Source: an uncultured Candidatus Saccharibacteria bacterium (GTDB lineage: Bacteria > Patescibacteriota > Saccharimonadia > Saccharimonadales > AWTP1-31). From it: 64,000 bases of DNA. Below are positions 4,011 through 24,067 of this stretch, piece by piece. Every line of letters begins with the position of its first letter. The first letter of the stretch is position 1. The translations under genes and the position numbers were made by a program. The stretch spans positions 112,721 to 176,720 of the forward strand of contig CAZVTA010000003.1 of the NCBI GenBank assembly GCA_964629815.1, in the 5' to 3' direction. Under the pieces are notes generated by a model that ran no database searches, was not told where the DNA came from, and saw nothing but the letters and a program-made list of their open reading frames with translations.

Positions 4011-4082
4011 AGCTAAATAAATATGCAAAGTGAGCGAGTCTAGTGACTGAGCCTAGCTACGCATATGCCAAAAGGAGATACA

Positions 4083-6986
4083 ATGCCCGAACACAGCCCT
4101 GCACGCTATTCGGAAGAGCTTACAAAATTAATGGCGTGTACAGATAATGATTCCTTAGTGCGCGTACATGATGCACTGTATGTTCGTGATGGCGAAGACT
4201 GGCAGTACCTACACCATGTAGGCGGAGTGCGACTATATGATCCTCGATACGACGAAGTGAAAACAAATGGCCAGCCCCAAGAACTGAAGCCGTGGGAGCA
4301 GTTTGTGCTAAACGGTGATTTTACAGTAATTGGCGACTACTTTCGCGACGGTAGACATCGCGATGTTGGTGCACGAGTACTTGGGGTTGAAGCAACAGAT
4401 TTATGTGCAGATGCACTACGAGAAGAGTTGGTAAGAGGCAAGGACCAGCTTGTATCGTTTGGCCAAGCCGGTAAAACGGTTGCGGTTGCCGCAGGCGATG
4501 GGGTAGTGTTTATGGCCCGGAAGACAGGCGAACATTCTAAGCAAATTGTCGCAGCAGCGGCTGCATCTGCCGTGCTATTTGGTGGTGTTGGGCTGCGTAT
4601 GGATCATATGGTTCCCGAACAGCCCGTGCCCACAGAACAAGCGCACGCCGCGACGCGGGGCGTTTCGATTGCAGTGCACGTAGATTCAACGACGGATGTC
4701 GAGGATTTGTCGTATCAGGTTGGTATGCCGCTCGAGCAAGTGCGACTTTCTGCCGACGGCAAAACGGCACACGTTACTATTCCACAGCCAACAATATTAC
4801 CAAAAATGACGCATGAACAAGAGACAGAACTTGCAACTCAGCTTGGTATTGATCCTCAGGTTATGAAAGCTGCCAACGAAGATACAACGAGCACAATTGT
4901 GCCGGTTCAGGACCTCGAGTTGGTACAGGTTACGGCGATAAGCCCAAATACTAAAGCAGTAGCGCAGGCGGTAGGCTTGCATGAGCAGGCAGTACAGGCA
5001 GTAACGATTGGCGATGAACATATGCTTGCCATGAGAACGCACATGATTGATGCCGACCCAACGGTTTGGGAAGACATGGCTTCCATCGTTTCTGTCGCAG
5101 CAAATTTACCTGAAAACGCTCAACAAAAAACTACGGTGGTTGAGGGCCAGACACCTGCAGAAGTGGCGCCGACACCGCAACCTGCACCCGAAGTTATAAC
5201 TCCCGAAGCAAAATATCATAAAGACATAGCAGAGGTGCAAAAAGCGCTCGAACATGCAGTTCAGACAGGGGGAGACCTTGGTCCGTTAAATCATATGGTA
5301 GTCTATTCGCCGTTATTTAACCCACGGCACGATTTGCCAGGCGATCTTGAATCTACTCGGCGTATACGATATATGCCACCTTCAAATCTGATGGAAATAC
5401 CCGGTTTGAAATACGAGTTTTCTCGTGGGGCGGGCGATATGCAGCGCTATGCAACTAATGAGACGGTCGCGACCACACTATACCTAGCGTATGCTTACCA
5501 ACAATATCTTGCACAGCATCCAGAATTACAGGCTACAATTGGCAACTCGTGTTTGCGGATTGGTGATTTGTCTGCAAAACACGATCATAAAACACACCAT
5601 GGTTCCATGGTGGACTACACTTCAAGCTTAAACTGCGACGTTCAGCACGGTCACCAGGTGGCAGATGGTCCTGTATTGTGGCTCAACCGTTCAACCGGCG
5701 GTGTGAGCGGAAGAATTGAAAATCCGCATTATGACCGAGCTATGGACATGTTCTTGCTGCAGGCACTAATGGGGGCTCATATTGGCGACAACTCATTAGT
5801 AGGCTCGATCCTCTACAACATTGATGGTGTAGATGTGCCGCGTTTGAAGAAGGCTGCAAACCATAGCAATCACGCTCATATAAATACAGCACCAGCGTTT
5901 AAAGATCTGCACCTGAAGGAATTTGCAGTTGGGGGTGAGCGTCCAGAGCTTAATCTAGATGGTTTGCGGGCAAGCGTGTTTGGTGATTACGTCCAAGGTT
6001 ACGGAGTGCCTGGTGTAAGTGATATGCCCCTATCCACGCTTGAGCAGCCAACTCAGCCGGCTCCCGTCGCACCTGAAGCAGTGGTAGCTGCGCAGGAAGT
6101 TACTGCTTCGCCTGAAGATCAATTTAAGTGGCATGTTGGTATGCTATTGAACGAAATTGCAGCCGGCGAGGGTGGGTATGATTCGGTTAACCGTGGTGTT
6201 GCCGGCGACACAAAAGTTGGCAGCGAAGCCTACCAGCGATTGTTTAGTGGACGGCAGTTGTCGCAGCTGACGATTGCAGAAATTCAGGCTAGCGATGCGT
6301 TTGCGGTGGGTAAATATCAGTTCATACCAAAAACCCTCGAGTCTGCAGTTCGTGCTTTGGGATTCGATAGAAATCGTGTGTTCGATTCTGCAACACAAGA
6401 TGAACTTGCAACAAAGTACTTGTTGTTCGCCAAGCGCCCAGCGTTAGCCAACTATTTGCGTGGTCAGTCAGACGACGTAAATGCTGCGGTTACTGCGCTG
6501 TGTATGGAGTTTGCGTCGATGCCGTGTCTCGACGGTACAGGGCATTACGATGGTGATCGTGCTGGCAATAACGCTGTGGGTGGTACAGAACGCGTCGCCC
6601 ATATACGGGCGCTGCTTACAAATGTGCGCAACGCCTTTGTTGGCTCGATCCTTACGGCCTATGCAGAAGCAAATTTGCCACCGGTTGAACCAGAAGAGGT
6701 TCCGATAGCCCCGACTCCGCCTATAACGCCATCTACGACCGCGGCGGTGCAGGCCGAGCCAGAAGTAGTACCACCGGTAACTGAAGCTGAAACATCTCGC
6801 GGTGCAGCACAGCAGGACGACGTGACTGGCCCAATTGTTTCGCTTTCGGAAGAAAGTGTGCGGCGAGTGCTGGGTTCGGTGATCGATGATGAAAACCGTA
6901 TTAACGATGCACTACAACAACTACAGGTTAATGACGAAGGTAGATACCAAATATCTACACAGCAGTTAATAGAGTTATCACAATAA
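4083..6986 (+). CDS. Large membrane-anchored putative cell-wall hydrolase: LAS-type metallopeptidase-like region + lambda-lysozyme/lytic-transglycosylase-like domain, Pro/Ala-rich linkers
   Basis: Start moved to the ATG at 4083, preceded by AAAGGAGA. One TM (QIVAAAAASAVLFGGVGL). HKTHHGSMVD (~5578-5616) plus NHSNHAHI (~5859-5885) resemble the HxxH..D / HxH motifs of MepA/M15-like LAS peptidases. EGGYDSVN...VGKYQFIPKTL...FDSATQDELA (~6166-6420) resembles phage lambda R-type lysozymes. Confidence 0.55.
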   Translation: MPEHSPARYSEELTKLMACTDNDSLVRVHDALYVRDGEDWQYLHHVGGVRLYDPRYDEVKTNGQPQELKPWEQFVLNGDFTVIGDYFRDGRHRDVGARVLGVEATDLCADALREELVRGKDQLVSFGQAGKTVAVAAGDGVVFMARKTGEHSKQIVAAAAASAVLFGGVGLRMDHMVPEQPVPTEQAHAATRGVSIAVHVDSTTDVEDLSYQVGMPLEQVRLSADGKTAHVTIPQPTILPKMTHEQETELATQLGIDPQVMKAANEDTTSTIVPVQDLELVQVTAISPNTKAVAQAVGLHEQAVQAVTIGDEHMLAMRTHMIDADPTVWEDMASIVSVAANLPENAQQKTTVVEGQTPAEVAPTPQPAPEVITPEAKYHKDIAEVQKALEHAVQTGGDLGPLNHMVVYSPLFNPRHDLPGDLESTRRIRYMPPSNLMEIPGLKYEFSRGAGDMQRYATNETVATTLYLAYAYQQYLAQHPELQATIGNSCLRIGDLSAKHDHKTHHGSMVDYTSSLNCDVQHGHQVADGPVLWLNRSTGGVSGRIENPHYDRAMDMFLLQALMGAHIGDNSLVGSILYNIDGVDVPRLKKAANHSNHAHINTAPAFKDLHLKEFAVGGERPELNLDGLRASVFGDYVQGYGVPGVSDMPLSTLEQPTQPAPVAPEAVVAAQEVTASPEDQFKWHVGMLLNEIAAGEGGYDSVNRGVAGDTKVGSEAYQRLFSGRQLSQLTIAEIQASDAFAVGKYQFIPKTLESAVRALGFDRNRVFDSATQDELATKYLLFAKRPALANYLRGQSDDVNAAVTALCMEFASMPCLDGTGHYDGDRAGNNAVGGTERVAHIRALLTNVRNAFVGSILTAYAEANLPPVEPEEVPIAPTPPITPSTTAAVQAEPEVVPPVTEAETSRGAAQQDDVTGPIVSLSEESVRRVLGSVIDDENRINDALQQLQVNDEGRYQISTQQLIELSQ

Positions 6987-14229: not shown

Positions 14230-14529
14230 CTAGCGGTACATTAGTATGCCGACAATCATGATAACTTGCACTATAAGCCAGAGCGTATTTAGGACTATGA
14301 TTTGCGTATGCTTATATAAGTATCCGAACATAAGAAAGGGTATACAGCCAATACAATATAAAACCCACATGGCTAAGGATATTCCGGTAGAATCTTTGCT
14401 CTGGAACAAAAGCACAATTTGAGGAATTGCAGTCAAGGGCATTAATACTGCAAAAATAGAACAGACACGATTAATGAGTCGTTTTTCGTCTTTTTTAGAT
14501 ATGAAAAAGTGGTAACTTCTGTTTGGCAT
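14230..14529 (-). CDS. PQ-loop / SemiSWEET-like 3-TM protein
   Basis: 99 aa, 3 TM, PQ motif (LTAIPQIVLL). Clear paralog of 22772-23107. Confidence 0.6.
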   Translation of the reverse strand: MPNRSYHFFISKKDEKRLINRVCSIFAVLMPLTAIPQIVLLFQSKDSTGISLAMWVLYCIGCIPFLMFGYLYKHTQIIVLNTLWLIVQVIMIVGILMYR

Positions 14530-14561
14530 ATATCGTTGTTGACGATTTTATTTTAGCATAA

Positions 14562-14583
14562 GAAAAACGGCGCAACGCGCCGC
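14562..14583 (-). terminator. Hairpin GCGGCGC-GTT-GCGCCG + TTTTTCT closing the tRNA-Leu(CAG) complex
   Basis: Read on the minus strand directly after the duplicated ..CATCCGCACCA. Confidence 0.6.
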
Positions 14584-14606
14584 TAATTCTGACTTGAGCC
14601 TATTTC

Positions 14607-14746
14607 TGGTGCGGATGAGATGGCTTGTTCAGTTCCATCCGGAATATGAGCAGTGCGAACGAGCCGTTAGGCGAGCTTTAGGGGGAGGGGTACGAAATTT
14701 GGATTCACTCCATATTCGTACCGGAGGGGTTCACCCCTCCTGAATG
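14607..14746 (-). other. tRNA-Leu(CAG) 3'-half mimic with spacer. Hairpin GGAGGGG-TGAA-CCCCTCC is followed by a GGTACGAA/TTCGTACC hairpin. A T-arm-like hairpin GATGG-AACTGAACAAG-CCATC follows, and the mimic ends in T-CATCCGC-ACCA.
   Basis: The last 14 nt are identical to the tRNA 3' end (14747-14760). The pseudo T-stem differs from the real GGAGG/CCTCT by paired changes. Confidence 0.6.
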
Positions 14747-14833
14747 TGGTGCGGATGAGAGGACTTGAACCTCCACGGGGTTGCCCCCACTACGACCTGA
14801 ACGTAGCGCGTCTACCAATTCCGCCACATCCGC
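14747..14833 (-). tRNA. tRNA-Leu(CAG), type II, CCA encoded
   Basis: GCGGATG..CTACG-TTCAGGT-CGTAG..GGAGG-TTCAAGT-CCTCT-CATCCGC-ACCA folded by eye; 87 nt. Confidence 0.95.
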
Positions 14834-14917
14834 ATATGATTTGAATGTTAAAGGTACTTCAGATATGTAGATAGTGGGGTCCCCACAAAATTGATAGATT
14901 TTGAGGGGTAAGGTGTT

Positions 14918-14958
14918 GCGCGTCTACCATTCGCTAGACAGCGAACCGCCACATCCGC
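14918..14958 (-). other. Pseudo 5' fragment of tRNA-Leu(CAG): acceptor 5' strand + D-arm, with the D-loop AAT replaced by a 16-nt hairpin TTCGCT-GTCT-AGCGAA
   Basis: GCGGATGTGGCGG[TTCGCTGTCTAGCGAA]TGGTAGACGCGC versus the real GCGGATGTGGCGGAATTGGTAGACGCGC. A TTGCAG-17-TATTAT promoter-like sequence lies just upstream. Confidence 0.6.
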
Positions 14959-15082
14959 ATGTGATTTGTATTAACAGATGACATAATAGTCTATATGAAA
15001 CGTCACTGCAAATCTCACACAGCGGTCGTTTCGTATGGTATGATATATGCCAGAACTACTAATGCTTTAACTTCGAGGGAAC

Positions 15083-16720
15083 ATGAGTAAAGTTGCACAT
15101 TATCTACAAGAACACTTATTGGGCGAAGTAAGCACATCTGCAGATGTACGACGATTCTTTTCTACCGATGGCGGCGTTTTCACGGTTACACCGTCGCTCG
15201 TGGTGTATCCGCGCAACGAAAACGATGTGCGCAAAACTGCACGGTTCACCTGGCAACTGGCCGAACGTGGCCGCGTTATCCCAATCACTGCTCGTGGTAT
15301 GGGCACCGACCAAGGCGGTGCGGCTATTGGGAGTGGTATCTCGCTGGTCTTTCCAGCCCATATGAACAAGATTCTCGAATTCGACGGCAAAACGGGCGAC
15401 GTAACGATCGAGCCGGGTATTATCTACGGCAAACTACAACAAACGCTTCATACTCATGGTCGTTTTTTGCCACCGTTTCCGTCTAGCGTGGAATATTCTT
15501 CTATCGGTGGGGCGATTGCCAATAATGCGGGTGGGGAAAAGACAGTCAAATATGGTAGTACCCGAAAGTTTGTAAAGAGTTTACGTGTTGTGCTGGCAAA
15601 TGGCGAAGTTATCGAAACCAAGCGTTTAAACAAGCGAGAACTCAGTAAAAAAATGGGCCTTTCGTCGTTCGAGGGCGAAATTTACCGTGCACTCGACGCC
15701 ATGTTCGACGAAAATAAGCCAATTCTCGATACGATGAACCTTAACGTAAGTAAAAACTCTGCCGGCTATGCCTTGCAAGAGGTAAAGGGCAAAGACGGTT
15801 CGTTCGACCTGACTCCATTGTTTGTGGGTTCTCAGGGTACACTTGGTATAGTCACCGAAGCGCTTATTAGTACCGAATTACACAATGCTAACACCACACT
15901 CATTGCAGCCTATTTCGACGATATTCGTGTTGCCGAAGAAGCCGTGCAGCAGCTCTTAAAACTTCCCGAACAACCAAGTGCTATAGAAGTAGTCGACGAA
16001 AACCTGCTGAAGTTTATTGATCAGCATAATCCAAACCAGCTAAAAGGTATCGTTACCAAACCATTCCACAAGCTCATTGTGTTGATAGAATTCGACAACT
16101 TAAACGTGCGTATACAAAAACGCATGGTCAAAAAGGCTGTTAAGATTCTGAATAACTACCAAGTAAAACACCAGGTAGAGACCGACGAAGAAGAAAAAGA
16201 AAAGCTCTGGAAGATTCGTCATAGTGCTGCAGCGGTTATTTCGCACGCCGAAGGTAACCTCAAGGCGCTGCCAATTATCGAAGATGGTATTGTACCGCTC
16301 GAACAATTCCAAGCATATCTGCACGGTGTGTATGAATTGTTTGCGAAGTATAATTTGCAGTCTGCTGTGTGGGGGCATGCCGGAAACGCCAACCTACATA
16401 TGCAGCCATTTCTTGACCTCAGCCAAGTAGGCGACAGACAAAAGGTCTTTAAGCTCCTTGAAGAATACTACACTATGGTTATTAGTATGGGCGGTAGCAC
16501 CAGTGGCGAGCATAGCGATGGCCGGTTGCGCGCACCATTCTTGCCGCGACTATATGGCAAAGAAGTATATGCGCTGTTCCAAAAAACCAAACAGATTTTC
16601 GACCCTTACGGAACACTCAACCCAGGTGTCAAGATAGACGTTACGCTCGACGACATCAAACCACTCTTGCGACACGAATATTCTATGGATCACTTAGCGG
16701 CGCATTTGCCACGGACATAA
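15083..16720 (+). CDS. FAD-binding oxidoreductase (GlcD / D-lactate dehydrogenase family)
   Basis: 545 aa; FAD-binding PCMH-type N-terminal region (..RGMGTDQGGAAIG.., ..GGAIANNAGGEK..). Confidence 0.8.
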   Translation: MSKVAHYLQEHLLGEVSTSADVRRFFSTDGGVFTVTPSLVVYPRNENDVRKTARFTWQLAERGRVIPITARGMGTDQGGAAIGSGISLVFPAHMNKILEFDGKTGDVTIEPGIIYGKLQQTLHTHGRFLPPFPSSVEYSSIGGAIANNAGGEKTVKYGSTRKFVKSLRVVLANGEVIETKRLNKRELSKKMGLSSFEGEIYRALDAMFDENKPILDTMNLNVSKNSAGYALQEVKGKDGSFDLTPLFVGSQGTLGIVTEALISTELHNANTTLIAAYFDDIRVAEEAVQQLLKLPEQPSAIEVVDENLLKFIDQHNPNQLKGIVTKPFHKLIVLIEFDNLNVRIQKRMVKKAVKILNNYQVKHQVETDEEEKEKLWKIRHSAAAVISHAEGNLKALPIIEDGIVPLEQFQAYLHGVYELFAKYNLQSAVWGHAGNANLHMQPFLDLSQVGDRQKVFKLLEEYYTMVISMGGSTSGEHSDGRLRAPFLPRLYGKEVYALFQKTKQIFDPYGTLNPGVKIDVTLDDIKPLLRHEYSMDHLAAHLPRT

Positions 16721-16727
16721 AACTTGT

Positions 16728-17021
16728 ATGATACGGTGGGAAGATCCTGTTACATATGTGGGCATTACTGGTGTGGTGCTGGTGTTGTTTTCTATTTATC
16801 GAACGAGTATTGGTCGCTGGACCAATAAGTCTTTTTGGTACGAGCTCGATGTTGTTTTTGGTGCGTCCATGGTGGCGTTTTATCAGCTGCATGTCGGTGC
16901 GTACGTTACTGTCGTTACCAACATTGCTTATGCTGTGGTTGCGTTTCGTGGCCTTACATCGTTCGCAGAACGATACACGGTCAAAAAGAAACGAACCAGC
17001 CGAAAAAAACCAAAACGCTAA
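16728..17021 (+). CDS. Small membrane protein with basic C-terminal tail
   Basis: 97 aa, 3 predicted TM, KKKRTSRKKPKR tail. Confidence 0.4.
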   Translation: MIRWEDPVTYVGITGVVLVLFSIYRTSIGRWTNKSFWYELDVVFGASMVAFYQLHVGAYVTVVTNIAYAVVAFRGLTSFAERYTVKKKRTSRKKPKR

Positions 17022-17029
17022 CTTATCGT

Positions 17030-17980
17030 TCAGTCAAGTAGCAGAAACTCATCTGCTTTAGTAGGCGCAAGTCCTTCGGGGCTTACGCCAATAGCAAGAA
17101 AATATGCAACATATCGATTCATAAAACGGCCCCACGCAAATAGTACGTCGTCGATTGCCGTGTACTGGCCTTGTTTTAAAACAACGCGTTTTGTGGTCTC
17201 GTCTATTTTACTTTCGTCTGTCACAAAGCCAGAGTGCGAACCTTCACCAACGATGCCACGCTGTTTTAAAAACGAATAGTTTTCTACCGTTGTTGCAAAG
17301 GCGGTCCGCGCTACGGGGCAGCCTACACTTTCTCGCTTTGGTATGCTTCTGTGTACGAGTGCGGTTGCTTCTCTTGTGAGGCTAATAGTATGTAGGCCAG
17401 ACTTGGTGTCTACGACTATCTCGTAGGGTGACAAGACAGCATTACTTGTGTTTTCAAAAAATGATGCATTGTCATACTCGAAGGCCTTGCTGAACGTAAG
17501 TTCAGTGCTGCATATTGGTCCAAAGTCGCGTGCATTAGGTTGGTATCGCCCAATTTGCGCAAGTGCCATACTGCCAAGCATCGAGCCAAACCACCCGGTT
17601 TGATACAGCTTGGCATGGTCGGCAAGACTGAGTGGCTCTTCAAGTAAGCCTTCGCGCAGGCAGAACTTACTTATATCGTTGCCAATTGCCCCTGCCATCA
17701 TTCCGGTAAAATGCCGGTCTGCAAAGCCGTGTTTATATACATCTCTGCCGGAAAATTCAGTGACGCCGTGTTGTTCTGCAAAGGTGTCCTTCGCATCGTC
17801 GCTTATTTCTAGATAGATCTGTGACTCTTTACCAATATCGACAGCATCGCCAAACAGACCGATTCGATGTGGCTTAAGGGCGTCTATATCTGGGACAAGA
17901 CTTGCCCGTGCATGGTGCGTATAAATAGCGGGCGCAACCGTACCATGAAACTCTTTTCGTAACGTGTGCATATCGGACAT
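17030..17980 (-). CDS. Hypothetical protein (orphan)
   Basis: 316-aa ORF with no motif recognised. Checked for tyrosine-recombinase R..HxxR..Y and found none. Confidence 0.55.
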   Translation of the reverse strand: MSDMHTLRKEFHGTVAPAIYTHHARASLVPDIDALKPHRIGLFGDAVDIGKESQIYLEISDDAKDTFAEQHGVTEFSGRDVYKHGFADRHFTGMMAGAIGNDISKFCLREGLLEEPLSLADHAKLYQTGWFGSMLGSMALAQIGRYQPNARDFGPICSTELTFSKAFEYDNASFFENTSNAVLSPYEIVVDTKSGLHTISLTREATALVHRSIPKRESVGCPVARTAFATTVENYSFLKQRGIVGEGSHSGFVTDESKIDETTKRVVLKQGQYTAIDDVLFAWGRFMNRYVAYFLAIGVSPEGLAPTKADEFLLLD

Positions 17981-18102
17981 ACTTAAAAGTAATAATACAA
18001 CAAAATCAACATAAAGTAAATAGATAGAGAAGGCAAGCGTTGAAGAAAGAGTTGCAAAATTTACAGTAATTCAGTAGTATATTGTAGTTCATTTACAGAT
18101 AG

Positions 18103-18189
18103 GCGCGAGTGCTGGAATTGGTAGACAGGCTACGTTGAGGTCGTAGTGTTCGTAAGGACGTGGAGGTTCAAGTCCTCTCTCGCGCACCA
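18103..18189 (+). tRNA. tRNA-Leu(GAG), type II, CCA encoded
   Basis: GCGCGAG..CTACG-TTGAGGT-CGTAG..GGAGG-TTCAAGT-CCTCT-CTCGCGC-ACCA; 87 nt. Confidence 0.95.
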
Positions 18190-18198
18190 AAACAATAT

Positions 18199-18227
18199 GC
18201 CGACCTCGAAGGTCGGCTTGTTGTTTT
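18199..18227 (+). terminator. Intrinsic terminator after tRNA-Leu(GAG)
   Basis: GCCGACC-TCGAA-GGTCGGC followed by TTGTTGTTTT. Confidence 0.7.
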
Positions 18228-18254
18228 GTAGCCGGTGGATTTGAACCGATAGGT

Positions 18255-18339
18255 GAGAAATGCCAGTGGCATTTTGCAAGGAAACCTTCTCTTGAAAACT
18301 TGTTTTCAAAGACGAAGTTTCGGGCCCGCAGAATGTGGG
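18255..18339 (+). ncRNA. 85-nt three-hairpin module, copy B
   Basis: GAGA-AATGCC/AGT/GGCATT-TT-GCAAGG-P2(AAACCTTCTCTTGAAAAC..TTTTCAAAGACGAAGTTTC)-GGG-CCCGCA/GAA/TGTGGG. Lies between ..ATAGGT and CAAGTCC.., which is a T-loop context. Confidence 0.6.
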
Positions 18340-18360
18340 CAAGTCCTCTCTCGCGCACCA
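18340..18360 (+). repeat. 21-nt direct copy of the tRNA-Leu(GAG) 3' end (T-loop CAAGT through ACCA)
   Basis: CAAGTCCTCTCTCGCGCACCA is identical to 18169-18189. Confidence 0.9.
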
Positions 18361-18371
18361 AGCAAAATAGT

Positions 18372-18400
18372 AACGACCGAAAGGTCGTTTTTGATTTTTG
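18372..18400 (+). terminator. Second terminator closing the Leu(GAG) complex
   Basis: AACGACC-GAAA-GGTCGTT followed by TTTGATTTTT. Confidence 0.65.
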
Positions 18401-18405
18401 TACGG

Positions 18406-18433
18406 TTGACAGATTGGTTGGCTGGTATATATT
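18406..18433 (+). promoter_or_regulatory. TTGACA-16-TATATT promoter; ATG at 18440 lies 6 nt after the -10 box (leaderless)
   Basis: Read directly. Confidence 0.55.
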
Positions 18434-18439
18434 GAGGTC

Positions 18440-18691
18440 ATGAAACATAATTTACAGAAGCCAGAAGTTTTGTGTGCACGGAATGTAATTATCTTTGAGT
18501 CGCCATACGCGGATGAGCCTCGATTAGATACGCCAGATGCAGGAAGTATGCTGAGCGAATATCCTCATGTGCCACCAGAAGTAGCCCGCGGTGCCCTTGA
18601 AAGCCTTACACAACTCGCAGATCTTGATATGCGTAGCCCAGAACGAGTTGCTGGGCTGCTTGCAATCGCAGACACTTTATCAGACCGATAA
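18440..18691 (+). CDS. Hypothetical protein (orphan cassette 1, gene 1)
   Basis: 83-aa ORF. Confidence 0.5.
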   Translation: MKHNLQKPEVLCARNVIIFESPYADEPRLDTPDAGSMLSEYPHVPPEVARGALESLTQLADLDMRSPERVAGLLAIADTLSDR

Positions 18692-18694
18692 TGT

Positions 18695-19234
18695 ATGACA
18701 AGCGAACGATATTTGTACGGACCCACAAATGGATTTGTAATTCCAGATAAAGCAGAGGTCAAAGCGCTGCCAAAAGGTATACGAAAATATACTGACAGAA
18801 TTGCGCCTCAAGGAAAGAGATGTCCTGACGGAATGTGGCGATCCGTTCCCGACGATGATTTTGCTTATGACGTTTACCTTACAAATGAAGAAGATGAGCT
18901 GTGGGTGAGACGCGCAACCCCATCGGTATTTCGTATGCAGGTACATACCCCACCGGGATTAAGCGGGGAGATAGAGCGTGTAATTTACAATTCGAGCGCA
19001 GGCAGTGCTGGAGTGTATGAATTTGGTGATTACGGTGCAGCAATCAGTATTGAGTCGGGCAATCCAGAAGAAATTGTTTCGATTCACAAGACAGACGATC
19101 CAGAAGGTTACCAACGTAAATTAAAATTTGTTTCTTGTTTACTGCTCGATAAATTGCTGCAGCGAAATCATTATAGGGAATTCTATCTTTCAAGAGCACT
19201 TGGGGGCGCCATGATTGACAGAGCGGTTGATTAG
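18695..19234 (+). CDS. Hypothetical protein (orphan cassette 1, gene 2)
   Basis: 179-aa ORF, 3-nt gap to the previous gene. Confidence 0.55.
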   Translation: MTSERYLYGPTNGFVIPDKAEVKALPKGIRKYTDRIAPQGKRCPDGMWRSVPDDDFAYDVYLTNEEDELWVRRATPSVFRMQVHTPPGLSGEIERVIYNSSAGSAGVYEFGDYGAAISIESGNPEEIVSIHKTDDPEGYQRKLKFVSCLLLDKLLQRNHYREFYLSRALGGAMIDRAVD

Positions 19235-19249
19235 GTTATATTAAAGGGC

Positions 19250-19555
19250 ATGCAAGAGCAACAGATTTCTCCAGGGGCAGCAACAAGAGCAAGAATAATG
19301 ACAACGGCCGAAGCGTGGCGTGCAACTTTGCACCCAAGCGATGCAGAATCATTGCGAAATCCTGCAGAACTGCTCGCTGCATTTCAGGATCACCAGATTT
19401 TTGCGAGTATGTTGGCCCGCGAGTTTCCTGAATCGATGCCTGGCCCCTACGAGCTATCTACCGAAGATATGGTTGTACTGCAAGGCTTGCGCCGTGCGCT
19501 GCCGTCTGCGGCCGATAGACTGTGGGAACAAGCCTATCCTATAGAAACCGCATAG
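19250..19555 (+). CDS. Hypothetical protein (orphan cassette 1, gene 3)
   Basis: 101 aa. TTGACA (19215-19220)-16-TATATT (19237-19242), ATG 7 nt later. Confidence 0.5.
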   Translation: MQEQQISPGAATRARIMTTAEAWRATLHPSDAESLRNPAELLAAFQDHQIFASMLAREFPESMPGPYELSTEDMVVLQGLRRALPSAADRLWEQAYPIETA

Positions 19556-19558
19556 CAT

Positions 19559-19918
19559 ATGGCACTTATTCGAGTTACTCATTTAGAATGTGGAGACGTA
19601 AAGCTTACTTCTAAAGATGTGAAGCTGTATACGTACGAAGGTAATGCCGAATGCCCGTCGGGCTGATATAGGTTTACGTGTTCAGAATGCGGCAAAATAG
19701 CATTGTATGATGCCGACCCGCAAGCTTTCGATATCTTACGTGCAGCAGGCTGCATAATAGAGGCGGTAAATGCGCCCGAGCATGATAGTAAAGAGGTTGA
19801 TTCAATAACGCTCCAGCAAGGTGTACTGTCTACAGATGAGGCTCTCGACACAATGAGGGCGCTCAATAGTGCGAGCGACCACCAAATTATGGAAATACTG
19901 ACCCGCAGCGTGCGCTAA
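19559..19918 (+). pseudogene. Cys-containing small ORF interrupted by an in-frame TGA (19664-19666); either two ORFs (35 aa + 71 aa) or a disrupted/recoded gene
   Basis: Own translation: MALIRVTHLECGDVKLTSKDVKLYTYEGNAECPSG*YRFTCSECGKIALYDADPQAF...; both parts are in the same frame. Confidence 0.35.
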
Positions 19919-19980
19919 GCCGCATTGTTGCATTTACAGATAAAAAAGGGTAAAATACTGCAGTTGCATACGTGCAAAAT

Positions 19981-20057
19981 GGGTTGTTAGCTCAGTTGGC
20001 TAGAGCATCTCGTTTACACCGAGGGGGTCGGGGGTTCGAGTCCCTCACAACCCACCA
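19981..20057 (+). tRNA. tRNA-Val(TAC), CCA encoded
   Basis: GGGTTGT..TCTCG-TTTACAC-CGAGG-GGGTC-GGGGG-TTCGAGT-CCCTC-ACAACCC-ACCA; 77 nt. Confidence 0.95.
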
Positions 20058-20065
20058 CGAAAACG

Positions 20066-20090
20066 GCCGGTCTTATCGACCGGCTTTTTT
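20066..20090 (+). terminator. Intrinsic terminator after tRNA-Val
   Basis: GCCGGTC-TTATC-GACCGGC followed by TTTTTT. Confidence 0.75.
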
Positions 20091-20134
20091 CGTGCTTCGG
20101 TGCGGTCTTGAATATCCGACCAAAGGGTCGGGGT

Positions 20135-20219
20135 GAGAAATGCCGGTGGCATTTTGCAAGGGAGCCAACTCTTACAAACTGGTTTGTAAAGATGTTGCGA
20201 CGGGCCTGCCAAAGGTAGG
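20135..20219 (+). ncRNA. 85-nt three-hairpin module, copy C
   Basis: GAGA-AATGCC/GGT/GGCATT-TT-GCAAGG-P2(GAGCCAACTCTTACAAAC..GTTTGTAAAGATGTTGCGAC)-GGG-CCTGCC/AAA/GGTAGG. Flanked by GGGTCGGGGT (20125-20134) and TCGAGTCCC.., so it sits inside a pseudo tRNA-Val T-loop. Confidence 0.6.
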
Positions 20220-20241
20220 TCGAGTCCCTCACAACCCACCA
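20220..20241 (+). repeat. 22-nt direct copy of the tRNA-Val 3' end
   Basis: TCGAGTCCCTCACAACCCACCA is identical to 20036-20057. It is followed by a 16-bp perfect hairpin (20241-20276). Confidence 0.9.
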
Positions 20242-20352
20242 AAGGATAAGTCCCATCAAGATGGGACTTATCCTTTGGCTCCGTGTAGTTTTTACAAAGG
20301 TGGTTGTTTGCGCTTCTGCTTTTGCTACAATCGAACACATTGAGGAGGGTAC

Positions 20353-20805
20353 ATGGAACATTCGCCGGAAATGACTTACGGTGCTAGCTCGCTCGGTGCC
20401 GCAAGCTCAGAAGCTCTGCAACAGCAATACCAAGCCGCACTCGGTCGTATAGAAGCGCGAGAAGACGGCGATTACCTAGATGGATACCCACTCCCACCGG
20501 ACAACGACGATGTATGGAAGACGCAGAGAATTGACGCAGACGTAACGCGTTTTATTGAGCCCTCAGTAGGGTTTGAGAGCGTTTGTTGGACTACTGAAAG
20601 GCGCATTTCGATCTTAGAAATTACCAACGCTGTGCAGCGGCAACGTAATATCCAAAGTATTATTAACGGCTGTGGGCCGTTTGATATTACTCCAGAACAG
20701 ACGGTGTTTATTGGCCTAGAGTTGATGCGTCAGGCAAAACCTAGTCGTATGCAAAAATTGGCAGCTTTTGTTGGCCGTATTGTGGAAGGAATTGCAGAAG
20801 CATGA
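20353..20805 (+). CDS. Hypothetical protein (orphan cassette 2, gene 1)
   Basis: 150 aa; TACAAT box and GAGGAGG SD upstream. Confidence 0.55.
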   Translation: MEHSPEMTYGASSLGAASSEALQQQYQAALGRIEAREDGDYLDGYPLPPDNDDVWKTQRIDADVTRFIEPSVGFESVCWTTERRISILEITNAVQRQRNIQSIINGCGPFDITPEQTVFIGLELMRQAKPSRMQKLAAFVGRIVEGIAEA

Positions 20806-20981
20806 CGCACGAGCAGATGGCAGAATCTTGCCCATACAGCGAAGAAGGCATTGCGGCGGTAGCAGCCGTGGTGGAAAAAATATTTGCTGGCCCCAGTCCA
20901 CAATATGTCGAATGGTTGTCGGGTTATTTGCAGCAACGGCACGAAGTAGCAGCACGTATTGGTTCACTGCCATTGTTCTAG
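20802..20981 (+). CDS. Hypothetical 59-aa protein (below the ORF-track cutoff)
   Basis: Own translation: MTHEQMAESCPYSEEGIAAVAAVVEKIFAGPSPQYVEWLSGYLQQRHEVAARIGSLPLF. ATGA overlap with the upstream stop. Confidence 0.45.
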   Translation: MTHEQMAESCPYSEEGIAAVAAVVEKIFAGPSPQYVEWLSGYLQQRHEVAARIGSLPLF

Positions 20982-21021
20982 ACGTGCGTGGTGCTATACT
21001 CGATATGAATGGAGGTATGCT

Positions 21022-21594
21022 ATGGCAGATCGTAGTGCAGAAAGTCCGTTGCTGGGTATAGAGCATGCTTGTGGCGGTTGCGAACAGGTTGACGTGTTAG
21101 AGCGTCAAGCAGGCGAGATATTACGTGCATCTGGCATGGTTGGGTTTGTGAACGAAGAAGGAACGGTTAGAGTGTGGGTCGGTAGAGATTCGATAGTCGA
21201 TCGACCGCGCGAAGAGCGTTTAGCGCAGGCTGGTATGGTTATTGATGCCGAGGTTCTGGGTAGTAACGATTCGCTGCGTTGTGCTGCTGGTTGCCTTTTG
21301 GCCGAAGTTTGCCTGAGCGATGTGTATAGGGATGTCAATGAATCGAATCATCAGTATAGGCAAGGCCATAAGTGGCACCAGATGCCGCTAGAAGATATTG
21401 TTGCCATGCCGCCACTCCTGTCCCCTGACGATGAGGTTACGAGATTTATAGAAGAGGCGTTTGGCGACACGGCAACGGAACATCAGGCTGCCGAAAGGCC
21501 TACGCACGGCACGGTGCATGTTCCACAGGTAGACGGTACAATAGAACGGTTTACCATTCGTCGCAGCGAAATTAATAGTAGTCAGGTACAGTAA
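21022..21594 (+). CDS. Hypothetical protein (orphan cassette 2, gene 3)
   Basis: Start moved to the ATG at 21022, which has a GGAGG SD 6 nt upstream; 190 aa. Confidence 0.55.
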   Translation: MADRSAESPLLGIEHACGGCEQVDVLERQAGEILRASGMVGFVNEEGTVRVWVGRDSIVDRPREERLAQAGMVIDAEVLGSNDSLRCAAGCLLAEVCLSDVYRDVNESNHQYRQGHKWHQMPLEDIVAMPPLLSPDDEVTRFIEEAFGDTATEHQAAERPTHGTVHVPQVDGTIERFTIRRSEINSSQVQ

Positions 21595-21603
21595 CCAATT
21601 ACT

Positions 21604-21846
21604 ATGGATATAGAACAGATACAACCAGCGGACAGTCCAGCGATTGCAAGGCTTCGGTTTACAGACGTAAACGGCAACGTCCAAGAGCGGAGCATACCAA
21701 CCAAGCCCATATTGAATATTGGTGAATGCGCATTAAGGACCGAGTGGCCAGAACCACCAGCCGAAGCGCCTTTGGGCAGGGCGATTATTCGTACCGATAC
21801 ATACCCGGGCTGGGTAACGGTTCCTACGCGGCTACTGTTGAGCTAA
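21604..21846 (+). CDS. Hypothetical protein (orphan cassette 2, gene 4)
   Basis: 80-aa ORF. Confidence 0.45.
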   Translation: MDIEQIQPADSPAIARLRFTDVNGNVQERSIPTKPILNIGECALRTEWPEPPAEAPLGRAIIRTDTYPGWVTVPTRLLLS

Positions 21847-21970
21847 CTCGATAAGGTGGGCAACAAAGTCCCACACTGGGTGTTCAAGCCGTGCGTAATA
21901 ATGACGCTGTTCGCCTTCGGGTGTTTCGACTCGGCGTATCATTCCTAGTCGTGCTAGGCACGCCATCTCT

Positions 21971-22041
21971 TGGTGGCTCCTCCCAGATCGCTTCACCGAA
22001 CTGGTCGTTCGCTCCGCTCACTTTTCCAGTTCTCGTCTGGG
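21971..22041 (-). other. tRNA-Phe 3'-half mimic: intact T-stem CCCAG/CTGGG with a 44-nt hairpin-forming insertion in the T-loop, then AGGAGCC-ACCA
   Basis: Minus strand: CCCAG-ACGAG[AACTGGAAAAGTGAGCGGAGCGAACGACCAGTTCGGTGAAGCGA]T-CTGGG-AGGAGCCACCA. The last 17 nt are identical to 22083-22099. Confidence 0.6.
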
Positions 22042-22048
22042 TACCATT

Positions 22049-22082
22049 AAAAAAGACCCCAGCTTTAGTGGGGTATTTTTAA
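22049..22082 (-). terminator. Terminator directly after tRNA-Phe
   Basis: Minus strand: AAAAATACCCC-ACTAAAGCT-GGGGTCTTTTTT. Confidence 0.7.
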
Positions 22083-22158
22083 TGGTGGCTCCTCCCAGAC
22101 TCGAACTGGGGACACAAGGCTCTTCAGGCCTCTGCTCTACCAACTGAGCTAAAGAGCC
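22083..22158 (-). tRNA. tRNA-Phe(GAA), CCA encoded
   Basis: GGCTCTT-TA-GCTC..GAGGC-CTGAAGA-GCCTT-GTGTC-CCCAG-TTCGAGT-CTGGG-AGGAGCC-ACCA; 76 nt. Confidence 0.95.
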
Positions 22159-22217
22159 ACAACCCGTCTATTTTATGAGAAAAAACACTTTTCGGCAAGG
22201 GTAGGGCGGTTAATAAC

Positions 22218-22349
22218 TTGCAAAAACACATTTGTCGTATACAATAGGCAAAAGTATGAACAGTATTTGTATGGCAAAGAAGACAAAGCGACAGCCCTAG
22301 CCGAAGCGGCCTTTTTTGACATGAAGCCCCGCCTCGGCGGGGTCTTTTT
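22218..22349 (+). ncRNA. Candidate small transcript: TTGCAA-16-TACAAT promoter, about 100 nt, two tandem terminators (22300-22317, 22327-22349)
   Basis: GCCG-AAG-CGGC + CTTTTTT, then CCCCGCC-TC-GGCGGGG + TCTTTTT. Contains only a 14-codon ORF (MNSICMAKKTKRQP). Confidence 0.3.
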
Positions 22350-22421
22350 ATGCTGTATGTCGATAAAAAGATTCATCTAGGGCCAGCACAGACAATGCTA
22401 ACTTTAAATGAACTGTAATAT

Positions 22422-22775
22422 ATGGAAAATAACAGAACTATACCAATTCAACCAGACATTGAGCCACTTGTGCCGTTACTCATGGTAGAGGCTATCCGCG
22501 AATCAGGGCAGTTGGCTGTATCGGGGCGGCCATTGTTTGTGATGGGTGGCGAAAAAGAACGCTATTATAACGACACGGTTATAGAGCTAGACGTGCCGCT
22601 GTACATATCGGCACTGCGTTCGATTCGCATTCCGCTTCTTGGGCACTCGCATCTCGAAAAAGTGTTCATCGGTGAGTACCCAGTGCTTACGGGTATACAC
22701 CAGGTTACGGGCGAAGACTACATGTTTGGCATACGGCCAGAGCTGAACTTCGACTGGTGCGACAACGCGGTCTAA
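22422..22775 (+). CDS. Hypothetical protein
   Basis: 117-aa ORF. Confidence 0.5.
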   Translation: MENNRTIPIQPDIEPLVPLLMVEAIRESGQLAVSGRPLFVMGGEKERYYNDTVIELDVPLYISALRSIRIPLLGHSHLEKVFIGEYPVLTGIHQVTGEDYMFGIRPELNFDWCDNAV

Positions 22776-23107
22776 TACCACTTGGCGCCGTACATAAGCC
22801 CACCAATGATGATCAGCTGCTGTAAGACGAGCCAGCACGCCTGGTAAAATATAATAACCTTTTCTTTATGGACGATTCCGTACCATAACCATACAAGCGT
22901 AAACAGCTGGTAGCCCACCCACGAACTAATGGCTATGCCCTCAGCGGACTTGTCGCGAAAAATCACATAAAGCTGCGGTATCGTTACGATTGGTTCAATG
23001 GCGGCCACAAGGTAAGTGAGCCGGTCTACGAGCAGGGGCTTGGCCTGTTTTTTTACAATGAGGGCTTTGCGGGCTTTGGTGTGTTGGTGTTGCCGAAATT
23101 TTGTCAT
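22772..23107 (-). CDS. PQ-loop / SemiSWEET-like 3-TM protein (paralog of 14230-14529)
   Basis: 111 aa; VTIPQLYVIF PQ motif; aligns along its length with the 99-aa paralog. Confidence 0.6.
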   Translation of the reverse strand: MTKFRQHQHTKARKALIVKKQAKPLLVDRLTYLVAAIEPIVTIPQLYVIFRDKSAEGIAISSWVGYQLFTLVWLWYGIVHKEKVIIFYQACWLVLQQLIIIGGLMYGAKWY

Positions 23108-23184
23108 GCTTATGCTTTAACTTTACTTCATACTAACAAATCTTGAGTTATTGCACAAAATGCCGTATAATCTCAATCTGTTAT

Positions 23185-23306
23185 GCGGGTCTAGCTCAGT
23201 TGTTTAGAGTGAGAGCTGCCTGAGGCAGGTCGCAAGGAAACCTTCTCTTGAAAACTTGTTTTCAAAGACGAAGATTCGGGGTCGCGGAACGTGACCGTCC
23301 TTGCCA
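23185..23306 (+). other. Pseudo 5' half of tRNA-Gly(GCC) (positions 1-24, then anticodon stem/loop CGTCCTTGCCA) interrupted by the 85-nt module
   Basis: GCGGGTCTAGCTCAGTTGTTTAGAG is identical to 23357-23381. TTGAGT-17-TATAAT promoter at 23143-23171. TTTAGAGT (23203-23210) can pair with ACTCTAAA (23321-23328). Confidence 0.6.
23211..23295 (+). ncRNA. 85-nt three-hairpin module, copy E
   Basis: GAGA-GCTGCC/TGA/GGCAGG-TC-GCAAGG-P2 (identical to copy B except 1 nt)-GGG-GTCGCG/GAA/CGTGAC. Confidence 0.6.
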
Positions 23307-23356
23307 GGCCAAGGTTGTCTACTCTAAAATCAAGAGATGTTCGTTTAGCAATATAT

Positions 23357-23433
23357 GCGGGTCTAGCTCAGTTGTTTAGAGCGCGTCCTTGCCAAGGACG
23401 AGGCCAGGGGTTAGAGTCCCCTGACCCGCACCA
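23357..23433 (+). tRNA. tRNA-Gly(GCC), CCA encoded
   Basis: GCGGGTC..CGTCC-TTGCCAA-GGACG-AGGCC-AGGGG-TTAGAGT-CCCCT-GACCCGC-ACCA; 77 nt. Confidence 0.95.
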
Positions 23434-23505
23434 AGAAAAGAGTCTTGTCCGATAGGGCAGGGCTTTTTTCTTGGCTTCGGTTACAGATTCTAACACCTGC
23501 CAAAA

Positions 23506-23541
23506 GAGGCCAGGGTGAATAGTGCCAGTCTTGCACCACCA
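23506..23541 (+). other. Degenerate tRNA-Gly 3'-part mimic ending GCACCACCA
   Basis: GAGGCCAGGG matches 23400-23409 (G + variable loop AGGCC + T-stem AGGG). It then diverges (TGAATAGTGCCAGTCTT) and ends GCACCA+CCA. Followed by the 9-bp hairpin ATGACCCCC/GGGGGTCAT (23549-23572). Confidence 0.45.
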
Positions 23542-23578
23542 AAAATGCATGACCCCCATTTTCGGGGGTCATTTCATG

Positions 23579-24067
23579 CTATAGCATTTTAACCATAACG
23601 AGCTTACCGAGTTTGTGGCCAACTTCAGTAAACCCAAGCTTTTCGGTCAGTAACTTGCTATCCGCATTGCATTTTGCTATGAAACCTTTGTGCCCGTATT
23701 TCGCGACCATTTCTGGTGTCGACGCAGCATTCAGTAGTCCTGCAACTGTCTTTGTGCCTACGCCTTGGTTTCTGAATTGAGGCAGGGTGATTATGCCCCC
23801 GACGACTGCAAGGTTTTTGCCGTCGTATTTTTCGAAACCAGTCACTCCTGCGTAGCTCATAACATCGCAATGAAACACCCAATGTGGCGACATAAATTCG
23901 CTAACCATAGCCATACCTATTGGGTGATTTTTAATAGTGATTGGGTCTAATGCTTTCATGTCTTCTTGCGAAGACAGCTCACATATTTCTTCAAAATCTA
24001 GTTCTAAGAACGCATCGCCGCTTGGCTCGTAATATATCGTGTCATGCGGTACTAATTCGTATTTCAT
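23579..24067 (-). CDS. GNAT-family N-acetyltransferase
   Basis: Start moved to MKYELVPHD (AAGGA SD). Motif A: ITLPQFRNQGVGTKTVAGLL. Confidence 0.65.
   Translation of the reverse strand: MKYELVPHDTIYYEPSGDAFLELDFEEICELSSQEDMKALDPITIKNHPIGMAMVSEFMSPHWVFHCDVMSYAGVTGFEKYDGKNLAVVGGIITLPQFRNQGVGTKTVAGLLNAASTPEMVAKYGHKGFIAKCNADSKLLTEKLGFTEVGHKLGKLVMVKML

Follow-up and report, generated by a model that had tools for sequence, protein, structure and literature searches.

Introduction

Why should an intact tRNA gene lie between two partial copies of itself? The question is raised by tRNA-Leu(CAG) on the minus strand of a 64,000-nucleotide (nt) stretch of DNA, termed the window below, from an uncultured Candidatus Saccharibacteria bacterium (assembly GCA_964629815.1, contig CAZVTA010000003.1, positions 112,721 to 176,720). 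Partial tRNA genes tend to be written off as scars of integration or as noise in the annotation. In a phylum of tiny, streamlined genomes, some 200 nt of additional DNA at many tRNA genes calls for an explanation.

We favour, with modest confidence, the reading that the two fragments are local partial duplications made at the DNA level and that they belong to a family of self-copy units, which form tRNA-shaped frames for RNA modules and are kept in step with the parent tRNA. The family was found almost only in Candidatus Saccharibacteria (TM7) metagenome-assembled genomes (MAGs), and self-copy units at many tRNA genes are apparently an undescribed habit of this group. The units recur with a constant polarity and evolve together with the functional gene, and most of them frame a strongly covarying RNA module.

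The fragments flanking tRNA-Leu(CAG)

The intact gene with its encoded CCA (14833-14747, minus strand, as are all features in this section) was called by ARAGORN and matched Rfam RF00005 with 54.2 bits. The initial annotation, made from the sequence alone, had described this gene as nested between a 5' part and a 3' part of itself, and all of the elements that it listed were found in place.

The upstream fragment consists of tRNA nt 1-13 (14958-14946, 13/13 identical) and nt 17-28 (14929-14918, 12/12 identical), with the D-loop AAT replaced by the 16-nt hairpin TTCGCT-GTCT-AGCGAA (14945-14930); the pseudo 5' fragment with a D-loop hairpin described earlier is thus borne out. It is preceded by a duplicate of the leader, ATACAAATCACAT (14971-14959), identical at 11 of 13 positions to the real leader (14846-14834), which shows that genomic DNA and not mature tRNA was copied. 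It is followed by a rearranged anticodon region (14917-14874) with the hairpin CCCCTCAAAAT/ATTTTGTGGGG and a variable-arm-like hairpin, GTGGGGACCCCAC (14886-14874); the real variable arm is GTGGGGGCAACCCCGTGG. The promoter-like TTGCAG-17-TATTAT reported 5' of this copy is present (15011-14983) but is a candidate only, as one such site was found against 2.1 expected by chance.

Downstream of the tRNA, the hairpin GGAGGGG-TGAA-CCCCTCC (14740-14723), which has no T-run, occupies the place of the first terminator of related units in a comparison of layouts. The next hairpin, GGTACGAA...TTCGTACC (14722-14689), encloses GGAGTGAATCC, which by eye weakly resembles GGTATGAAAGTCTTGAACC, the inverted T-loop segment found at the corresponding place of the Leu-CAG unit in locus L082. 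Next comes an inverted copy of a motif (ATGAGCAGTGCGAACGAGCC on the plus strand; 14665-14646; about 16 of 19 nt matched by eye) that other 3' units have in the sense orientation (GTGAGCAGAGCGAACGGGAGG in L124, L117 and L147; GTGAGCGGAGCGAACG at tRNA-Phe of the window). A degenerate T-arm (GGATGG...CCATC) and the 3' partial copy (14640-14607) follow; the final 14 nt, TCTCATCCGCACCA (14620-14607), exactly repeat the 3' end of the tRNA with its CCA and lie 126 nt from the tRNA. Of the pseudo T-arm plus CATCCGC-ACCA claimed previously, the exact 3' end therefore stands, whereas the arm is only loosely T-arm-like. An intrinsic terminator (about 14584-14566) closes the unit. The hairpin GTGGGG/CCCCAC and a second CCCCTCC copy, also listed at the outset along with GGAGGGG/CCCCTCC and the terminator, were likewise located.

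An exact match of 13 nt (upstream) or 14 nt (downstream) was reached in 0/2000 shuffles of either 300-nt flank, and the identical 5' copy is carried by an independent assembly (Logan contig L001). A chance origin of both copies is excluded. An exact-protein look-up of the neighbouring oxidase returned a 3.4-kb contig and nothing else.

No open reading frame (ORF) of at least 50 aa lies within 14529-15083. Directly downstream of the unit terminator is a 99-aa ORF (14230-14529, minus strand) with weak PQ-loop/MtN3 (SemiSWEET-like) matches.

Self-copy units and their identity with the parent tRNA

All eight tRNAs of the window were compared with the window by short-word BLAST. Self-pieces were found at five of them (Leu-CAG, Leu-GAG, Val, Phe and Gly); tRNA-Cys, tRNA-Leu(TAA) and tRNA-Ala(GGC) have none. 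Together with units from other genomes these follow two layouts. A type-D unit runs, in order, tRNA, terminator, inverted and decayed 3' half, direct variable loop and T-stem 5' strand, module, 3' end from nt 55/56 to CCA, and second terminator. A type-U unit begins with promoter and leader and continues with the tRNA 5' part up to the insertion point, the module, a short piece of tRNA (frequently with a short inverted segment of the T-arm behind it), a second promoter/leader and the intact tRNA.

The self-pieces at Leu(GAG), Val and Gly share a core of GGTGAGA, a hairpin, GCAAGG, a long bulged hairpin, GGG and a hairpin. These three modules were the only ones matched in the window by a covariance model of the module (R1) run with filters off; the same search gave no module in 14562-14975, which covers the Leu-CAG flanks, nor in the flanks of tRNA-Phe. 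The Leu(GAG) unit (18190-18360, plus strand) comprises a terminator, an inverted T-loop piece, the module (18242-18348, 112.6 bits) and a 21-nt exact 3' copy (18340-18360). The Val(TAC) unit (20058-20241, plus strand) holds a module (20122-20228, 105.2 bits) and a 22-nt exact 3' copy (20220-20241). Upstream of tRNA-Gly(GCC), a unit at 23185-23304 (plus strand) consists of a 25-nt exact 5' copy (23185-23209), a module inserted after the D-arm (23198-23304, 104 bits) and an anticodon-arm piece. Downstream of the same tRNA, a decayed 3' unit was recognized by eye (23470-23541, plus strand): inverted 3' half, GGCCAGGGT, the first 13 or so nt of the module, CTTGCACCACCA and a terminator. Gly is thus a second nested case in the window, a type-U unit with module combined with a decayed type-D unit. 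The Phe(GAA) unit (22082-21971, minus strand) is a 3' unit without module and contains a terminator, the inverted T-arm CCCAGACGAGAACTGG, GTGAGCGGAGCGAACG and a T-arm with a 7-nt insert, ending in a 17-nt exact 3' copy (21987-21971).

The tRNAs Leu(GAG), Val, Phe and Gly form a tight cluster in several related genomes (L076, L112, L140, L141 and L146 were compared). In the window they are spread over 5.3 kb (18103-23433), with Phe inverted and with small ORFs lacking a Pfam match between them (18695-19234, 20353-20805 and 20959-21594); the cluster resembles a hotspot for insertions and inversions. tRNA-Leu(GAG) itself (18103-18189, plus strand) was missed when Rfam was run on the whole window at gathering thresholds and scored 48.9 bits (gathering threshold 29) when searched alone. 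The miss is a filter effect and does not reflect a defective gene.

The order of pieces was scored in a set that had not been selected for modules, namely 136 scorable tRNAs from the window and from 80 metagenomic loci encoding the FAD-linked oxidase that neighbours tRNA-Leu(CAG) (64-78% identity), counting exact pieces of at least 12 nt. A 3' piece lay downstream in 15/136, a 5' piece upstream in 7/136, both in 2/136 and the reverse arrangement in 0/136.

Of the type-D units examined (32 aligned), nearly all contain an inverted 3' half that begins with TGG, complementary to CCA. The piece after the module was 100% identical to the parent 3' end in 24 of the 35 units tabulated (9-22 nt, mostly 21-22), despite acceptor stems that vary among species, as in Val (CACAACCC, CATCACCC and CAGCGCCC). 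In several species the 5' pieces of type-U units match exactly over 25-54 nt. The terminator (in L006 and L057) and the promoter/leader (in L007) were duplicated too, and the copies were therefore made from genomic DNA and not from mature tRNA. The identity ends sharply at nt 55/56 and at CCA and, as the flanks are non-homologous, these ends fit conversion or selection alike. Lys units share the junction GACACGCCAAAGGGTGTC, and the Val-TAC type-D unit recurs across many species. Tandem units occur in L007, L013 and L125, and opposite-strand copies are rare (L022 and L050).

The module family

A strict pattern of the module, which is about 90 nt long, was searched in 185,579 GTDB species genomes. 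It returned 72 stretches, essentially all from Candidatus Saccharibacteria (TM7)/Patescibacteria MAGs, a distribution that places the window in a Saccharibacterium. An alignment of 66 copies contains three helices, with 96.7% of cells paired and 17 pairs altered on both sides. The covariation score was 0.414, whereas shuffles scored 0.148 and slid structures no more than 0.061. As the helices are kept through compensatory changes in each copy, the structure is under selection copy by copy. A G-U pair in helix 3 is retained in 55/66 copies, which points to folding of the tRNA-sense strand. RNAalifold, applied to 22 type-D units, predicted that the T-stem closes the module, with covariation.

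The module adjoins an intact tRNA and lies on the same strand in all but two cases. It was found at 14 tRNA types (Leu, Val, Met, Lys, Gln, Glu, Ala, His, Pro, Gly, Ser, Phe, Arg and Trp). Insertion is mostly in the T-loop, between nt 54 and 55/56; other points are after the D-arm (Gly, Phe, Ser and the first L082 module) and in the anticodon loop (Pro-GGG). Different middle modules occur in L031, L057, L117, L124, L138 and L147, and some modules are nested doubles. A nested second unit (GTGAGA-hairpin-GCAAGGA-hairpin) was seen between the long and last hairpins in L003, L015, L020, L026, L040, L042 and L096; the module seems to be built from a repeatable sub-motif.

No Rfam 15 family matched the module even at E <= 5 (14300-24000). 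At gathering thresholds over the window, and at E <= 5 in 14300-24000, Rfam gave only tRNAs, a cyclic-di-GMP-II riboswitch and chance matches. The riboswitch aptamer (RF01786, 3868-3951, plus strand, 68.1 bits against a gathering threshold of 53.5) lies upstream of a 973-aa ORF (4065-6986). The module pattern was absent from viral contigs, and phage records gave generic tRNA matches only. The full-text literature searched described neither the module nor an arrangement like it and returned only unrelated work (tRNA group I introns of Patescibacteria, integration tRNA fragments and inverted triplication models). The family may be a new RNA class.

In L032 (1650-1790, plus strand) a complete tRNA-Lys(UUU), not called by ARAGORN, has its T-loop interrupted by the module, with no intact copy beside it. 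After excision of the module, the T-loop would be 6 nt long. The contig carries an intact Lys(UUU) at another place (L053), accompanied by a type-D unit of its own. A simple intron was rejected as the explanation of the units: the host copies are partial, and excision in L032 would not give a 7-nt T-loop.

The Leu-CAG locus across species

Among the 80 oxidase loci, tRNA-Leu(CAG) was present in about 45, mostly just upstream of the oxidase gene and on either strand. Within this set, 5' pieces were found in L082, L084, L095, L122 and L141 and 3' pieces in L117, L124, L130, L138, L142 and L147, some loci having both. R1 modules accompany Leu-CAG on both sides in L095 and on one side in L084, L090, L096, L122 and L130; L082 has two in one upstream pseudo-tRNA and one downstream. 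The syntenic locus of genome L014 is a further example of Leu-CAG pieces, and L057 carries tandem 5' pieces, a 22-nt exact 3' piece and an identical terminator. The nested geometry noted at the outset recurs at Leu-CAG in L057, L082, L095 and L122, as it does at Gly of the window.

Every 5' piece repeats nt 1-13 of the tRNA beside it (GCGGATG, GGGGATG or GCGGACG), after which a hairpin stands at a constant position (L014, L057, L125 and L141), and the 3' piece (CATCCGC or CATCCCC) matches its own tRNA each time. The hairpin is of the type TTCGCTGTNNAGCGAA in the window and in L141 (where its form is TTCGCTGTACAGCGAA, at the same position) and of the type CTGCG-TGAAA-CGCAG in L014, L057 and L125, a compensatory change. 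The 5' pieces of the window and L141 are identical at 34/38 nt. Because this piece is conserved while the rest of the spacer is unrelated and the oxidases are only 65% identical, the comparison argues for constraint on the hairpin-bearing 5' piece. Comparison of orthologues, which had been proposed as a check, thus gave a divided answer: most syntenic Leu-CAG loci are without pieces, yet the hairpin-bearing piece is kept between these two species.

A second leader element, consisting of nt 1-13, CTGCG-TGAAA-CGCAG, ..GTAGACGCG.., GTCCGAAATGAC and TAAACTA, was seen in L004, L014, L048, L057 and L125. It accompanies Leu(CAG) as well as Leu(TAG) and forms tandem copies in L057 and L125; L004 and L048 have the same leader at Leu-TAG genes.

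The strand of tRNA-Leu(CAG), about 100-400 nt upstream of the same oxidase, varies in the series L074-L153 (plus in L074 and L080, minus in L076 and L090). The gene has been flipped repeatedly, which fits the inverted tRNA pieces around it.

Discussion

The window Leu-CAG locus is read as a reduced or remodelled member of the family, with both frames (type U and type D) and no R1 module. In the module's place are the D-loop hairpin, the rearranged anticodon region, the two hairpins after the tRNA, the inverted motif and the degenerate T-arm. The duplications, their polarity, the module family with its covariation, the co-variation of pieces with parents and the variable states of Leu-CAG loci are counted here as observations; the following steps would connect them. 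The upstream fragment is a copy of the leader and 5' part and the downstream fragment one of the 3' part and terminator, probably made through template switching at natural hairpins (terminator and tRNA arms) in the manner of inverted triplications (PMC4689423). The direct-inverted-direct layout is of the kind that template switching at hairpins would yield. The units may be transcribed together with the tRNA, whose derived parts would supply T-stem closure and either CCA end and terminator or leader and promoter to the embedded RNA, serving as its frame and processing context. The tracking of the parent across species is concerted evolution, by gene conversion or selection.

Several points weigh against this reading. 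The assignment of the window Leu-CAG locus to the family rests on layout and orthologues, as neither flank contains an R1 module, and its downstream exact copy is 14 nt long where 21-22 nt is typical. No self-pieces occur at most syntenic Leu-CAG loci, so no essential role can be claimed. The inverted copy pairs imperfectly with the 3' piece (77% Watson-Crick, with a G-U to A-C ratio of 2:1); the underlying strand asymmetry, 58 G-U against 29 A-C mismatches, is suggestive and not decisive. Some invariant columns of the module alignment were forced by the strict search pattern. Finally, conversion and selection are indistinguishable as the source of the identity.

A stronger functional claim is possible, and we put it forward tentatively: the module would be a new functional RNA class (ribozyme, aptamer or protein-binding domain) set in frames that were copied from the tRNA next to it and are kept identical to that tRNA, on whose life cycle it would act. 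It might release or present exact tRNA 5' or 3' fragments, which could serve repair, regulation or decoy given piece ends at the T-loop, 37/38 or 25/26; alternatively, it might switch between a normal and a module-interrupted precursor. On this view, the same system would include the hairpin-bearing leader copy at Leu-CAG as another, smaller module.

It is rather unlikely that the module is selfish, that is, a mobile insertion like an intron or a miniature inverted-repeat transposable element (MITE) which targets tRNA-shaped DNA at GGT/GAGT sites (nt 25/26, 37/38 and 54/55). Only insertions into one copy of a transient local duplication would survive, the partial tRNA copies would be mere by-products, and the Leu-CAG pieces would be scars left after module loss. 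Such an element would account for the patchy presence and absence at orthologous Leu-CAG loci, the two modules in one upstream pseudo-tRNA of L082 and the tandem units of L007, L013 and L125. The rare opposite-strand copies (L022 and L050), the complete but interrupted tRNA-Lys standing alone in L032 and the truncated modules at Gly and Phe of the window would follow as well. However, none of the units is linked to a transposase, an integrase or a reverse transcriptase, and viral contigs yielded no copy. The helices are kept by compensatory changes in each copy; the same tRNA carries the same type over many species (the Val-TAC type-D unit and the Lys junction GACACGCCAAAGGGTGTC), which indicates old vertical inheritance; and the Leu-CAG 5' piece, which has no module, is conserved between distant species.

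The initial annotation had pointed to the complementarity of the outer GCGGATG and CATCCGC strands. The strands are complementary, but both copy acceptor strands, so the pairing is automatic and does not count as independent evidence. It is improbable, on balance, that the outer pieces pair in a long precursor as a scaffold whose acceptor-like helix with CCA steers RNase P, 3' processing or stability. When the transcript 14562-14975 (minus strand) was folded, as had been suggested, the outer helix did appear in the predicted minimum-energy and centroid folds (z = -4.8), while the cloverleaf of the real tRNA was missing from the same prediction. Such a scaffold is also in line with the co-variation of the pieces with the tRNA and with the retention of the 5' piece and its hairpin in both the window and L141. 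On the other hand, a hairpin in terminator position lies between the tRNA and the 3' piece, and both pieces together are rare (2/136). As most units are one-sided, the outer helix cannot be a general function.

We give very little weight to the downstream copy being the displaced att half-site of a nearly deleted island or prophage. Integration classically leaves, as its signature, an exact direct repeat of the 3' end of a tRNA gene downstream of that gene (PMC9897764), but only 126 nt without an ORF of at least 50 aa separate the tRNA from its copy here. Integration at the 3' end does not make 5' copies with duplicated leaders, the arrangement recurs over many tRNAs and species with a conserved structured module, and viral contigs are without that module.

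A decayed array of three head-to-tail Leu-CAG genes, of which the first lost its 3' part and the third its 5' part, is equally hard to credit. The leader and the 3' end with terminator are duplicated in direct orientation, which speaks for such an array; the inverted 3' halves, the hairpin insertions at a fixed position and the 100% identity of pieces beside an unrelated spacer are left unexplained. Moreover, the hairpin-bearing 5' piece is kept across species whose neighbouring proteins are 65% identical, and the module is shared at other tRNAs. Three intact tandem Leu-CAG genes were found at none of the approximately 45 syntenic loci.

Three further explanations were rejected or left unsupported. 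A tRNA cassette inserted into an older tRNA gene, one of the two layouts first proposed, is not supported because the 5' and 3' pieces occur independently and each has its own duplicated leader/promoter or terminator; in L082 there is an overlap in the T-arm between the upstream and the downstream copy, which are therefore not halves of a single split gene. An origin from mature tRNA by reverse transcription, suggested by the resemblance of the 3' pieces in length to 3' tRNA-derived fragments (tRF-3) and primer-binding sites, fails because terminators and promoters/leaders were duplicated too. A guide RNA (TnpB/Cas12-like or Cas12k-like) would match the layout of a scaffold with a 21-22-nt tRNA-identical 3' end and a target preceded by GGTT. 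It was left unsupported; no linked nuclease was seen, neighbouring genes beyond the window not having been examined, and a linked nuclease gene is unlikely because the units sit at 14 tRNA types. A tRNA frame fits better, given the T-stem closure and the 5' pieces.

A functional module would represent a new class of tRNA-linked RNA in Saccharibacteria, whereas a selfish one would be a new kind of miniature element that targets tRNAs and persists through duplication of its target. In both cases the annotation of tRNAs in Saccharibacteria genomes is affected. Some Saccharibacteria can be cultured and transformed, which makes them a tractable test case.

Comparison with known systems

None of the known systems compared matches the units on its defining features. 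Integrative elements are a recognized and common source of tRNA gene fragments (PMC9897764). The exact copy of a tRNA 3' end, in direct orientation and downstream of the intact gene, is shared with att-site fragments. Here, however, the repeats are 110-190 nt apart with no integrase or cargo between them. There are also 5' copies that include a duplicated leader; the copies evolve together with the parent; and the unit contains a conserved structured module as well as an inverted 3' half. At the window Leu-CAG locus no integrase or remnant was found in the 126 nt, and the neighbouring ORFs lack integrase domains.

Archaeal tRNA introns occur at non-canonical positions. Group I introns are present in tRNA genes of Patescibacteria, and tRNA introns are unusually common in the phylum (PMC13011429). 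Intron-containing genes resemble the units in having a structured RNA within a tRNA loop, in the same phylum. The units differ in that a partial host copy lies beside an intact gene and in that the module, at about 90 nt, is far below group I size. No Rfam intron matched at E <= 5 in 14300-24000, and tRNA-Leu(CAG) of the window is intact.

Split and permuted tRNA genes are found in Nanoarchaeum and Cyanidioschyzon. They likewise have separate 5' and 3' pieces with complementary flanks, in a reduced-genome episymbiont, whereas here an intact gene lies between or beside the pieces. Because this gene for the same tRNA is present, the pieces are not needed for making it.

Bacterial tandem inversion duplications (TIDs) are comparable to inverted triplications. 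In the model of origin-dependent inverted-repeat amplification (ODIRA), inverted triplications form by template switching at short inverted repeats (PMC4689423). The direct-inverted-direct order and the junctions at natural hairpins (terminator or tRNA arm) are common to both and to the present units. By contrast, the segments here are tens of nucleotides long, old and retained across species; the third copy equals the first while the inverted copy decays, and the third carries an extra module.

RNAs framed by or resembling tRNA include tmRNA, the bacterial Y-RNA-like YrlA and engineered tRNA scaffolds. In these, as in the type-D units, an RNA domain is set in a frame with a T-arm, an acceptor 3' strand and CCA. 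The frame of the self-copy units differs in that it copies the neighbouring tRNA, changes from locus to locus and tracks that tRNA.

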